Shown: positions 47,558 through 59,544 of the stretch, one piece after another | How positions within the stretch are numbered: position 1 is the stretch's first letter | Layout of the letters: each line of letters begins with the position of its first letter | Assembly (NCBI GenBank): GCA_945907755.1 | Contig: CAMDTN010000005.1 | Location: 16,140-80,139, forward strand | From: Singulisphaera sp. GP187 | Lineage (GTDB): Bacteria > Planctomycetota > GCA-002687715 | DNA: 64,000 nt | Direction: 5' to 3' | Translations under genes and position numbers: made by a program | The notes under the pieces: model-generated | Databases searched by the model: none | The model's input: only the letters and a program-made list of their open reading frames with translations | What the model was told of the DNA's origin: nothing

Positions 47558-47575
47558 AGTAAAGCCAAGATAAAG
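47558..47575 (-). promoter_or_regulatory. Putative Pho box (CTTTATC-ttgg-CTTTACT on minus strand) upstream of porin paralog 3
   Basis: Two 7-mer direct repeats separated by 4 bp (11-bp phasing), the same architecture as the sites at pstS and the pit operon. It lies 90-108 bp upstream of the porin ATG. Confidence 0.5.
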
Positions 47576-47663
47576 AGCGCCTTCCCTAACTCCGCGGGGC
47601 TCATGGGCGCTTTGCTGAACGAACGGGCTTGCTGAGGATCAAAGCCCTGCGATAGTGGCAGCC

Positions 47664-48620
47664 ATGCGCTTGCTCTTCTTGTGCACCGGTAATTCGTGTC
47701 GCTCGCAAATGGCCGAGGGTTTCGCGCGAGCACTAGCCCCACCTGGGTTGGTAGTGGCTAGCGCCGGCACACACCCGAGCAGCGTGCACCCGCTGGCCGT
47801 GCAAGTGATGCACGAGGCCGGAGTGGACATCAGCGCGCAGCGCTCCAAAGGGCTCGATGCCGTGGCGCTCGCGGAGGCGGATGTGGTGGTGACCCTGTGC
47901 GGCGACGCCGATGAGCGCTGCCCGGTGCTGCCGCGCAAATGCCGGCGGCACCATTGGCCGATTTCGGATCCTGCACTTCTCAGCGGCGATGCGGCCACTG
48001 TGTTGCAGGGCTTCCGCTCCGTGCGTGACCAATTGGCGGCGCGTGTGCGCTTGCTGGTGTTCAGCCTCGGTGAAGGCGGCGCGCTGGTGAACTCCATCGA
48101 GCCCATTCACGACGCGGGGTTCATGAAGTTTCAGTGCGAAGAATTGGTGCTGCCCAACGGAGTGCATTGCTCTTTGAAAATTATCCGCCACCCCGGTGCC
48201 GCCTGCGTGGTGCCGCTGCTGCCAGATGGACAGGTGGTGCTCATTCGGCAATATCGCCACGCCGCGGGCGGCTACATCCTGGAAGCGCCAGCAGGCAAGC
48301 TGGATGGCGGAGAGACACCAGAGTCTTGTGCGCTGCGCGAGATCGAGGAAGAAGCGGGCCTCAGCGCGGGAAAACTGCATCGGCTGGGGCCGATTTTCAC
48401 GACGCCCGGATTCACCGACGAGGTGATCCACTTGTTTGCGGCCACGCAATTGCAGCGCGTGCCCGCGCGCCCCGAGCACGACGAGATCATCGAGACGGTG
48501 GAGATGCCGCTTGCAACCGCGCTCGAACTGGCGCGCAGTGGCGAAATCTGCGACGGAAAAACGCTGTGCGCACTGTGGCGGGTGGAGCAGGAGCTGCGCG
48601 CAGGCTCACTGCGTCCGTAG
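47664..48620 (+). CDS. Fusion protein: arsenate reductase (ArsC, LMW-PTPase family) fused to a NUDIX hydrolase
   Basis: N-terminal domain has the CTGNSCRSQMAEG P-loop and the Cys pair TLCGDADERCP (ArsC Cys82/Cys89 equivalents). C-terminal domain has the NUDIX box GKLDGGETPESCALREIEEEAGL. The ATG at 47664 is preferred over the GTG at 47655. Confidence 0.7.
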   Translation: MRLLFLCTGNSCRSQMAEGFARALAPPGLVVASAGTHPSSVHPLAVQVMHEAGVDISAQRSKGLDAVALAEADVVVTLCGDADERCPVLPRKCRRHHWPISDPALLSGDAATVLQGFRSVRDQLAARVRLLVFSLGEGGALVNSIEPIHDAGFMKFQCEELVLPNGVHCSLKIIRHPGAACVVPLLPDGQVVLIRQYRHAAGGYILEAPAGKLDGGETPESCALREIEEEAGLSAGKLHRLGPIFTTPGFTDEVIHLFAATQLQRVPARPEHDEIIETVEMPLATALELARSGEICDGKTLCALWRVEQELRAGSLRP

Positions 48621-48639
48621 GACGCAGTGAGCCTGCGGA

Positions 48640-49671
48640 TCAAACTGTCCAAGCACCCAGCATCAACCCGCGCAGCAAGAAGAAGGAAGCAGCTCCCAAA
48701 GCCATGCTCGCCGGGAAAGTGGCCACCCACGCAAACAGAATCTTCTTCCCCACATTCCAGCGCACGGCCTTGCGGCCTCTGCCCGCAGCCACACCCATGA
48801 TGGCGCCAGTAATGCTGTGCGTGGTGCTGATAGGCACGCCAGCAAGTGTGTTCAGCAGGATGGTGGTGGATGCTCCGGTTTCTGCAGCGAAGCCTTGGTA
48901 GGACTTCATCTCGCCGAGGCGGCTGCCAAGAGTGCGCATGACACCCCAGCCACCGACGATCGAACCGAAGAACATGGCCGCGGCACATGAAAACCGCACC
49001 CACGGTTCGATATAGAAGCCACTGCTGATGTCTTGTTGGTGCGTAGCGATCATGACGCCCGTGATGATGCCCATGGCCTTTTGCGCGTCGCCAGTTCCGT
49101 GGCTGAAAGCCATGGCGCCGGCGGAAACTATTTGTGCCTTATCGAAGAACCAGTTGGCTTTGCGCGGCTTCATCTTTGCGCAAATGCGCGAGATGATGAC
49201 CACGAGGATGAAACCGAAAATGAACCCGGCGATGGGTGAAGCAATGATGCCTTTGCCCACCTTCATGATGCCGTCGCCCATGACACCGTTGCTGCCCGAA
49301 GCGAACAACGCCGCGCCAACCAGCGCGCCTAACAGTGAGTGCGAGCACGAAATCGGCAGCCCGCGCACGGTGCACCAAGTGATCCAGATCGGTGCGCCCG
49401 CAACCGCAGCCATGAAGATGTAGGGCCCGATGGATTGGTCGTTCAGAATGTCCTTGGGCACGATTTCCGCGCCCACGGTCTTGGCCACTTCAGCGCTGAA
49501 CAGCGCGCCGATGCCATTCAGTACGGCTCCGAAAATGACGGCGGGGACAGGGCGCATAACGCGTGTGCCCACCACGGTGGCGATGGCGTTGGCCGCATCG
49601 TTCCAGCCGTTCGCCATGTCAAAGATCAGGGCGAACACTGTGACGAAGATGACAATAGTGACAGGATCCAT
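48640..49671 (-). CDS. pitA: Inorganic phosphate transporter, PiT family
   Basis: PiT repeats GANDVANA-like (GWNDAANAIATVVGT, and FSHGTGDAQKAMGII in the second half). AGGAGG RBS. Confidence 0.85.
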   Translation of the reverse strand: MDPVTIVIFVTVFALIFDMANGWNDAANAIATVVGTRVMRPVPAVIFGAVLNGIGALFSAEVAKTVGAEIVPKDILNDQSIGPYIFMAAVAGAPIWITWCTVRGLPISCSHSLLGALVGAALFASGSNGVMGDGIMKVGKGIIASPIAGFIFGFILVVIISRICAKMKPRKANWFFDKAQIVSAGAMAFSHGTGDAQKAMGIITGVMIATHQQDISSGFYIEPWVRFSCAAAMFFGSIVGGWGVMRTLGSRLGEMKSYQGFAAETGASTTILLNTLAGVPISTTHSITGAIMGVAAGRGRKAVRWNVGKKILFAWVATFPASMALGAASFFLLRGLMLGAWTV

Positions 49672-58420: not shown

Positions 58421-58441
58421 TGGGAGATCATTCCAACAGGC

Positions 58442-59401
58442 TCAGTTCTTCGTTGCCATGGCGCCCAAGGCCTTGGTTGCCACTGCTGCGGTGAGCGGCA
58501 GATAACCATCCTTCACCACAATCTCTTGGCCTTGCTTCGACAGCACGAAGCGCAGGAACTCGCTGGTCAGCGGGTCCATCGCCTTGGTGGGGGCTTTGTT
58601 CACATACACGAACAAGAAGCGACTCAATGGATACTTGCCGCCATAAACTTCGGCTGAAGAAGTGCCCACCGCGGCTTCGCCGGTCTTCACCGACAAGCGC
58701 AGGATCTTCACATCGCTGGTGCGATAGCCGACGCCGCTGTACCCCATGGCATACAAGTCGCCGCCCACGCCTTGCACCACCGCTGCGGAACCCGGCTGCT
58801 CTTTCACCGTGTCCTTGAAATCGCCCTTCGACAGTGCGTGTTCTTTGAAGTAGCCATAGGTGCCCGAGGCGGAGTTGCGTCCGTAAAGGCTGAGCGGGCG
58901 CGCGGCCCAATCGCCAGTGAGCCCTAGCTCGCCCCATGTCGAAATATCCGCTGCGGCACCGCCCTTGCGCGTCTTGGAGAAGATTGCGTCGGCTTGTTGC
59001 AGCGACAGGCTTTCCAGTGGGCAGTCCTTGTGCACATAAATCGCGAGTGCGTCGATGGCCACCGGCACGGCGGTGGGCTTGTACCCAAACTTCTTTTCGA
59101 ACTCGTCGATTTCTGTGGCCTTCATGTTGCGGCTCATTGGCCCCAACTGCGCAGTGCCCGCGATCAGTGCCGGCGGCGCCGTGGCAGAACCCTTGCCTTC
59201 GATCTGCGTGTTCACGCCCGGGTAGCACTGCTTGAAGCCTTCGCTCCACAGCGCCATCAGATTGTTCAGCGTGTCGGAACCGACAGAGCTGAGGTTGCCG
59301 GAAACGCCGGCCACCGTGCGGTACTCAGGCAAGCCCGCATCCACCGCAGTTTGGGCCACCGCGGAAAGGGCCAGCACCATCAGCATCAAACTTGTGCGCA
59401 T
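58442..59401 (-). CDS. pstS: Phosphate ABC transporter substrate-binding protein
   Basis: AGGAGA RBS. Signal peptide MRTSLMLMVLALSAVAQTA. PBP superfamily fold. The ORF-track start at 59479 is rejected. Confidence 0.8.
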   Translation of the reverse strand: MRTSLMLMVLALSAVAQTAVDAGLPEYRTVAGVSGNLSSVGSDTLNNLMALWSEGFKQCYPGVNTQIEGKGSATAPPALIAGTAQLGPMSRNMKATEIDEFEKKFGYKPTAVPVAIDALAIYVHKDCPLESLSLQQADAIFSKTRKGGAAADISTWGELGLTGDWAARPLSLYGRNSASGTYGYFKEHALSKGDFKDTVKEQPGSAAVVQGVGGDLYAMGYSGVGYRTSDVKILRLSVKTGEAAVGTSSAEVYGGKYPLSRFLFVYVNKAPTKAMDPLTSEFLRFVLSKQGQEIVVKDGYLPLTAAVATKALGAMATKN

Positions 59402-59480
59402 CTTTTTCTCCTTGAGGTTCCTACGGCACCGCCGCAGGTGCGGGCCGCAAGGGCTCGCTGACTCAAGCTTGGCGCCCAAA

Positions 59481-59544
59481 GATAAAGATCCTTGTGGGCA
59501 CTTGGTAAAGACAATGCCTGCGCAGTGTAAAGGCCTGATAAAGA
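59481..59544 (-). promoter_or_regulatory. Putative Pho box array upstream of pstS (four CTTTAYM 7-mers, at 59481, 59504, 59527 and 59538)
   Basis: Read on the minus strand the array is TCTTTATC-aggc-CTTTACA ... TCTTTACC ... TCTTTATC. Spacings are 11, 23 and 23 bp, so the half-sites are helically phased. The array lies 80-145 bp upstream of the pstS ATG. Confidence 0.55.

Follow-up and report, generated by a model that had tools for sequence, protein, structure and literature searches.

A Pho box is made up of two direct repeat units of 11 nt, each with seven conserved and four less conserved positions, and its consensus is species-specific (PMC4415409). The half-site reads CTGTCAT in Escherichia coli and GTTCACC in Streptomyces coelicolor (PMC4415409, PMC2275107), and that of the Synechocystis regulator SphR reads CTTAACCT (PMC1906773). 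In Bacillus subtilis, PhoP boxes contain four TT(A/T/C)ACA repeats with 11-bp periodicity, and the promoter region of Lacticaseibacillus paracasei pstS, which is bound by phosphorylated PhoP in electrophoretic mobility shift assays, contains caatCTTTACAttc with the half-site CTTTACA (PMC11870197). Here, we describe CTT(T/C)AY(C/A) direct repeats, 11 bp apart, in a phosphate gene island on contig CAMDTN010000005.1, within a stretch of 64 kb that was analysed as a whole (hereafter, the window; 128 kb counting two strands, with a GC content of about 62%). Judged from sequence, these repeats are very likely Pho boxes, that is, operators of the phosphorylated response regulator encoded at 59554-60285 of the window.

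Phased direct repeats in the phosphate island

Four sites of the form 7+4+7 were found, each with at least two tandem 11-nt units as in the definition of a Pho box, together with two further half-sites ahead of pstS. All were located on the minus strand and co-oriented with the downstream gene (pstS, DUF47-pit, a Porin_O_P gene, and the regulator gene), as follows (half-sites in capitals).

59526..59543, minus strand: pstS box A, CTTTATC-aggc-CTTTACA, a pair of neighbouring 11-nt units
59504..59510, minus strand: pstS half-site 3, CTTTACC, starting 22 bp after half-site 2 and in 11-bp phase
59481..59487, minus strand: pstS half-site 4, CTTTATC, within the shared 13-mer AGGATCTTTATCT
50340..50357, minus strand: DUF47-pit box, CTTTACA-ggat-CTTTATC, ending 38 bp upstream of the DUF47 ATG
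47558..47575, minus strand: porin box, CTTTATC-ttgg-CTTTACT, ending 89 bp upstream of the porin ATG
60318..60335, minus strand: regulator-gene box, CTTCATA-gaat-CTTCACG, ending 32 bp upstream of the regulator ATG

The pstS half-sites started at 59543, 59532, 59510, and 59487, with spacings of 11, 22, and 23 bp. Box A started 10 bp past the regulator stop codon and ended 124 bp upstream of the pstS ATG. Half-site 3 was flanked on both sides by degenerate partners (GCAGGCA and GCCCACA), and half-site 4, starting 23 bp after half-site 3, ended 79 bp upstream of the ATG. The porin box lay in the intergenic DNA from which the first Porin_O_P gene (minus strand) and the LMWPc-NUDIX gene (plus strand) diverge, and only this first paralogue had an upstream box.

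An earlier sequence-only reading had described 7+4+7 repeats with 11-bp phasing upstream of three minus-strand genes and proposed them as candidate Pho boxes read in the direction of transcription. The repeats were present at all of the positions claimed, and every site faced as its downstream gene. The CTTTAYM half-site given in that reading described most half-sites, but the second porin half-site, CTTTACT, breaks the final M, and the strict 18-mer matched only twice. Of the two extra pstS half-sites described as in phase, the third was in 11-bp phase, but the fourth was 1 bp out of phase. A 15-mer said to be shared by two sites shrank to a 13-mer, AGATAAAGATCCT, which occurred exactly at both 50339-50351 and 59480-59492 (the DUF47-pit and pstS sites); a single inserted T distinguishes the two longer words (15/16-mers) that had been quoted. 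The regulator-gene box is a fourth site, absent from that reading, and overlaps the HI0933-like gene at its stop codon. Its position just upstream of the regulator ATG implied autoregulation, which is typical of Pho systems.

A separate feature of the pstS upstream region was an 11-bp stem at 59522-59563 on the minus strand (AAAGGCCUGAU / AUCAGGCCUUU) with a 13-nt loop, a minimum free energy of -17.2 kcal/mol, and a z-score of -1.95. The stem extends over the regulator stop codon and both half-sites of box A, and may be a terminator-like hairpin of the regulator gene. Given this overlap, dual constraint may act on part of the box A sequence.

The placement of the repeats was non-random. Dinucleotide shuffles put the expectation for the pattern CTTTAY-N5-CTTTAY at 0.01, and the two-strand window gave three matches, all of them on the minus strand within the three upstream regions. 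The window has 15 CTTTAY hexamers, and 8 of them sat in these three promoters. When four promoter regions were compared with window frequencies, the leading over-represented 6-mers were TCTTTA, CTTTAC, TTTATC, and CTTTAT (p = 4e-10 to 4e-8), all sub-words of TCTTTAYC; this count is not independent, because the promoter regions were picked after the motif was known. A matrix of eight half-sites scored the three dimers at 23.7-24.6 bits, whereas none of 30 simulated sequences exceeded 16, a score that is circular as a test and serves to display the gap to simulated sequences. Independent tests were provided by a relaxation of position 4 that was suggested by relatives and by strict-pattern matches in related loci. 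Relaxing position 4 to T/C added exactly one match in the window (0.03 expected), namely the regulator-gene box. Since this relaxation came from the CTTCATC boxes of relatives and not from the fourth site itself, the fourth site was a prediction that held.

Searches of the window for described box types were negative. The enterobacterial CTGTCAY box, with up to three mismatches, gave three matches versus 14.5 expected, all outside the island, and the strict TTHACA-N5-TTHACA pattern with at most one mismatch gave no match. An Rfam scan of the window returned nothing relevant.

Recurrence of the boxes in related loci

The ribosomal protein S1 encoded in the window shared 79% identity with a protein from a metagenome-assembled genome (MAG) at NCBI labelled 'Planctomycetes bacterium'; the lineage is uncultured and is placed only loosely from this match. 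We know of no phosphate operator described for this lineage, a properly targeted literature search not having been made.

PstS homologues of 61-75% identity from 80 metagenomic loci were compared by their upstream boxes. At least five phased half-site types were found behind similar PstS proteins (L026-L105, 61-71% identity): CGTCAC/TGTCAC, CTTAACA, CCTAACA, CTTCACA, and CTTTACA. PstS identity was rejected as a guide to relatedness, with L026 and L027, at 70% PstS identity, carrying GTCAC-type boxes. PstS being too conserved to mark kinship, relatives were therefore chosen by synteny, one group sharing the order GT2 - hypothetical - HI0933-like - (TPR) - regulator and the other the order pstSCAB-phoU-kinase-DUF47-pit.

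Phased boxes were found in these relatives at orthologous positions. Upstream of pstS, L021 and L023 carried CTT(C/T)ATC-gagt-CTTTACA-(t/c)gat-CTTTCCT-gt-CTTCATC, and L106 carried CTTCATC-attc-CTTCATG-ggat-CTTTGAT between the regulator gene and pstS, the sole strict match in 15.5 kb. Upstream of the TPR-regulator operon, L106 and L109 carried (C/A)TTCATC-atat-TTT(G/A)AT. The porin gene of L107 was preceded by a weaker CTTGAAC-gaag-CTTCATA-agat-CTTGGTT, and DUF47 of L021 and L023 by CTTCATC-attc-C(C/T)TT... The strict pattern gave three matches in 96.6 kb from five non-redundant related loci, all upstream of pstS, versus a chance expectation of about 0.1 by our own estimate. The boxes were thus conserved in the orthologous promoters of pstS, the regulator operon, and, more weakly, DUF47-pit and a porin gene, recurring while the flanking sequence diverged. 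The clade consensus was CTT(T/C)A(T/C)(C/A), with the spacer ahead of the promoter-proximal unit often nGAT. A search of genome contigs with PhoU retrieved alphaproteobacterial loci only, at no more than 38% identity, which were unusable for footprinting.

The regulator, its kinase, and the recognition helix

The best NCBIfam match of the regulator was PhoB (238.6 bits), and its closest solved structure by sequence was RegX3, the mycobacterial phosphate regulator. The best NCBIfam family matches of the kinase were PnpS and PhoR. In L107 and L109, the regulator gene directly precedes the kinase gene, indicating that the two form a cognate pair that is split by pstSCAB-phoU in the window. The boxes are thus accompanied by both a PhoB/PhoP-type regulator, probably the cognate one, and a PhoR-type kinase.

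The recognition helix of the regulator was DRNIDVHIGNLRK and the wing was TVRGLGY. For comparison, we used the E. coli PhoB helix, DRTVDVHIRRLRK, with the wing TVRGTGY. Relative to this sequence, the regulator showed the substitutions T194N, R200G, and R201N and kept V197, R203, T217, and R219 (numbering checked against PMC3264566). Base-specific contacts of E. coli PhoB are made by T194, V197, R201, and R219 (PMC3264566); the corresponding residues of the regulator were N, V, N, and R, so that two of the four differed from PhoB. We propose that the half-site departs from CTGTCAT because Thr194 and Arg201, which read bases in PhoB, are both replaced by Asn in the helix. The motif DRNIDVH was invariant in 19 orthologues, including Planctomycetes- and Krumholzibacteriota-labelled proteins, and none of the 19 had Arg at the 201-equivalent position.

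The relationship between helix and box was examined in loci that encode both the regulator and pstS and have a detectable phased box upstream of pstS. Boxes were of the GT(C/A)AY type in all five loci with Arg at the 201-equivalent, and of the TT(T/C/A)AY or CTAAY type in all eight loci with another residue (S, A, G, or N). These loci collapse to roughly four and six independent clades, and the support from co-variation is therefore modest, though consistent. E. coli KdpE, which has His at the 201-equivalent, reads TTTA(T/C)A (PMC3264566), and the co-variation pattern fits KdpE. We tentatively suggest, at rather less than even probability, that the regulator belongs to a widespread 'DRNIDVH / non-Arg201' PhoB-like class (Planctomycetes-labelled, Krumholzibacteriota, and other uncultured lineages), in which loss of Arg201, the residue that reads guanine, together with T194N would shift the operator from GT(C/A)AY to (C)TT(T/C/A)AY. 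If so, the window would represent a matched regulator-operator pair on which to test a simple one- or two-residue Pho-box recognition code across phyla. The varied half-sites behind similar PstS proteins (L026-L105) offer a ready data set for relating Pho-box evolution to the recognition helix.

Comparison with described Pho systems

The sites resembled the E. coli PhoB box (PhoB-DNA structure 1GXP) in having at least two 11-nt 7+4 units upstream of pstS and the regulator gene, and the locus resembled the E. coli Pho system in its PhoB/PhoR/PstSCAB-PhoU gene set and in the conserved equivalents of V197, R203, T217, and R219. However, the half-site was CTT(T/C)AY rather than CTGTCAT, the spacers were often nGAT rather than A/T-rich, the helix carried the three substitutions described above, and the island had no canonical box. 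With no CTGTCA(T/C) box and with N at both T194 and R201, the sites did not conform to the enterobacterial type.

Firmicutes PhoP boxes shared with these sites the TTTACA half-site, the 11-bp periodicity, about four half-sites at pstS, and a spacing tolerance of +/-1 bp. The pstS and DUF47-pit dimers each contained one TTTACA half-site; the porin half-site TTTACT deviated from the Bacillus type by one mismatch, and those of the regulator box by one (TTCACG) and two (TTCATA). The partner half-site in the window was TTTATC (TTCATC in relatives), which differs from TTHACA at two of six positions, and for this reason the sites are not strictly of the Bacillus type. The organism also differs from Firmicutes in being high-GC and Planctomycetes-labelled.

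A TT(C/A)AC core in an 11-nt direct repeat is shared with S. coelicolor PhoP and Synechocystis SphR sites, in which the number of units also varies per promoter and some units are displaced by 1-2 nt; GTTCACC of S. coelicolor and CTTCATC of the relatives match at five of seven positions. In contrast to those sites, the first base here was C and not G, positions 4-6 preferred T-A-T/C, and the sites here are predicted from sequence. The sequence-only reading had called the box non-canonical. This description holds against E. coli CTGTCAT, but CTTTACA-type half-sites are established for Firmicutes PhoP (PMC11870197) and the consensus varies by species (PMC4415409). As published Pho half-sites vary between species, the box is non-canonical only relative to enterobacteria.

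Proposed regulation and alternative explanations

Under phosphate limitation, the PhoR-like kinase (51301-53046), otherwise restrained by PstSCAB-PhoU, would phosphorylate the regulator. Regulator dimers would then bind the repeats head-to-tail on one DNA face, with one winged-helix domain per 7-bp half-site, and recruit RNA polymerase. Binding would switch on pstSCAB-phoU, the phosphate porin(s), and the gene of the regulator itself; at DUF47-pit, the same kind of site would activate or, more like orfA-pit of Sinorhizobium meliloti, repress. Binding itself, its dependence on phosphate, and the sign of regulation are predictions of this model.

The form and orientation of the repeats, their gene context, their recurrence in relatives, and the presence of a PhoB-like regulator and a PhoR-like kinase all support the Pho-box reading. 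Several points weigh against it. The pattern was derived from the same sites that were used to test it, and the enrichment counts cover 64 kb of the genome. Co-variation involves about 10 independent clades, the boxes at the L107 porin gene and at DUF47 of L021/L023 are weak, and the PhoB score of the regulator falls under the NCBIfam equivalog cut-off of 296.2 bits. The assignment was made on sequence, in an uncultured organism. Promoter geometry was also inconsistent. A box that stands in for the -35 element would have a -10 hexamer (TAN3T/A) about 10 bp downstream. Three of the sites were followed after 9 bp by an xAxxxT hexamer, namely TATGCT at the porin box, GATACT at the regulator box, and CATTGT at pstS box A, but such a hexamer was seen neither at DUF47 nor in relatives, so that no -10 element was present at a consistent fixed distance; a scan for sigma-70 promoters was negative at every site.

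The alternative with the strongest standing concerns the DUF47-pit box, which the sequence-only reading had taken to replace a -35 element. Instead of acting as such an activator site, this box could serve repression or pose a roadblock, turning off the low-affinity transporter during starvation. In S. meliloti, phosphate starvation represses the orfA-pit operon, whose PHO box lies just ahead of the start codon (PMC3131613). This operon likewise combines a DUF47-like orfA with pit, and the box in the window is comparably placed, 38 bp before the ATG; in L021 and L023, it ends 12 bp before a confirmed GTG start and overlaps the ribosome-binding region. The two half-site types also occur in reverse order relative to the pstS and porin boxes. 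Conversely, TTTACA-17 bp-TATCTC could pass for a weak sigma-70 promoter whose -35 region is covered by the box, and pitH2 is among the Streptomyces operators with PhoP-binding repeat units (PMC2275107), so that a Pho box at a pit gene is not unusual. The half-site also differs from that of S. meliloti, in which repression is demonstrated, whereas it is conjectured here. Because the box lies near the start codon, as in the repressed orfA-pit, replacement of a -35 element is not secure and is no better supported than repression, to which we assign a probability just below one half. The DUF47-pit box may accordingly be an activator or a repressor site.

Directly abutting the DUF47-pit box, a complex local repeat occupied 50358-50600, between the TPR lipoprotein gene and the box. 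It comprised two 44-nt direct copies 107 bp apart with 93% identity, a pair of identical 21-nt copies separated by 55 bp, and a perfect inverted repeat of 14 nt, and had no further copies within the window. It could be an element resembling repetitive extragenic palindromic sequences or miniature inverted-repeat transposable elements, or a structured terminator or insulator.

For the full set of sites, the repeats might instead be operators of another OmpR-family regulator encoded elsewhere, with the adjacent regulator reading a different sequence. Recognition of 6-7 bp direct repeats phased at about 10-11 bp is common among OmpR-family proteins, and the core TTTA(T/C)A recognised by E. coli KdpE is almost identical (PMC3264566); the sub-cut-off PhoB score of the adjacent regulator leaves room for this reading as well. 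However, the sites lie on both sides of the regulator gene and ahead of pstS, pit, and phosphate porin genes, relatives pair the regulator gene with a PhoR-like kinase gene, and across clades the box type follows the 201-equivalent residue of the regulator encoded at the locus. We therefore consider an unlinked regulator improbable. It is less credible still that the words have no dedicated regulator and are either AT-rich patches arising by chance or promoter elements of a generic kind (-35-like TTTACA or UP-like): TTTACA is a common -35 variant and intergenic DNA is relatively AT-rich in a 62% GC genome, but an exact 11-bp phased duplication occurred four times versus 0.03 expected and only at phosphate-gene promoters of the window, the phased boxes recur in relatives despite diverged flanks, and most half-sites lack a matching -10 element 17 bp away. 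The -35 hexamer reading was rejected on phasing, conservation, and the missing -10 partners. A repeat or mobile-element origin of the boxes was likewise rejected, the shared sequence extending over 13-18 bp.

Read as Pho boxes, the repeats are an ordinary regulatory element in a new, lineage-specific sequence dialect, which will not surprise a specialist, and they leave the general understanding of phosphate regulation unchanged. CTT(T/C)AY(C/A) with 11-bp phasing provides a usable Pho-box model for this uncultured Planctomycetes-labelled lineage, with which the Pho regulon could be predicted from MAGs. It also adds one more data point linking the PhoB recognition helix to the half-site sequence, and a test case for such rules.

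Gene content of the phosphate island

Island genes were identified by Pfam and NCBIfam. The pstSCAB-phoU block spans 53043..59401 on the minus strand, and the genes are listed below.

60328-61668, minus strand: HI0933-like flavoprotein gene, first in transcription order
59554..60285, minus strand: OmpR/PhoB-family response regulator gene, the presumed binder
58442-59401, minus strand: pstS
56168-58420, minus strand: pstC, long
54565-56181, minus strand: pstA
53735-54556, minus strand: pstB
53043-53777, minus strand: phoU
51301..53046, minus strand: PhoR-like sensor histidine kinase gene (HAMP-PAS-HisKA-HATPase)
50602-51264, minus strand: TPR lipoprotein gene
49684-50301, minus strand: DUF47/PhoU_div gene
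48640-49671, minus strand: pit, PHO4-family phosphate transporter
47655-48620, plus strand: LMWPc-NUDIX fusion gene, divergent
46167-47468, 44810-46111, and 43291-44676, minus strand: three tandem Porin_O_P paralogues

The small TPR lipoprotein gene was a conserved member of the island; it follows the kinase gene in the window and lies directly upstream of the regulator gene in relatives (L106, 9314-9994; L109, 9348-10058). Each of the three Porin_O_P paralogues had an N-terminal coiled-coil-like extension, and the triple arrangement was also present in L107. The LMWPc-NUDIX gene encodes an ArsC-like low-molecular-weight phosphatase domain (CTGNSCRS motif) fused to a NUDIX hydrolase, and may tie arsenate detoxification to phosphate uptake. 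Its divergent arrangement with the phosphate porin was kept in L107 (12763-13719), and its intergenic region is shared with the porin box.

Elsewhere in the window, ARAGORN called a 93-nt tRNA-Lys(ctt) at 28540-28632 inside a long open reading frame (26836-28956); this call is probably a false positive, because it was not confirmed by Rfam. A tRNA-Pro at 12067-12141 was confirmed by both ARAGORN and Rfam.

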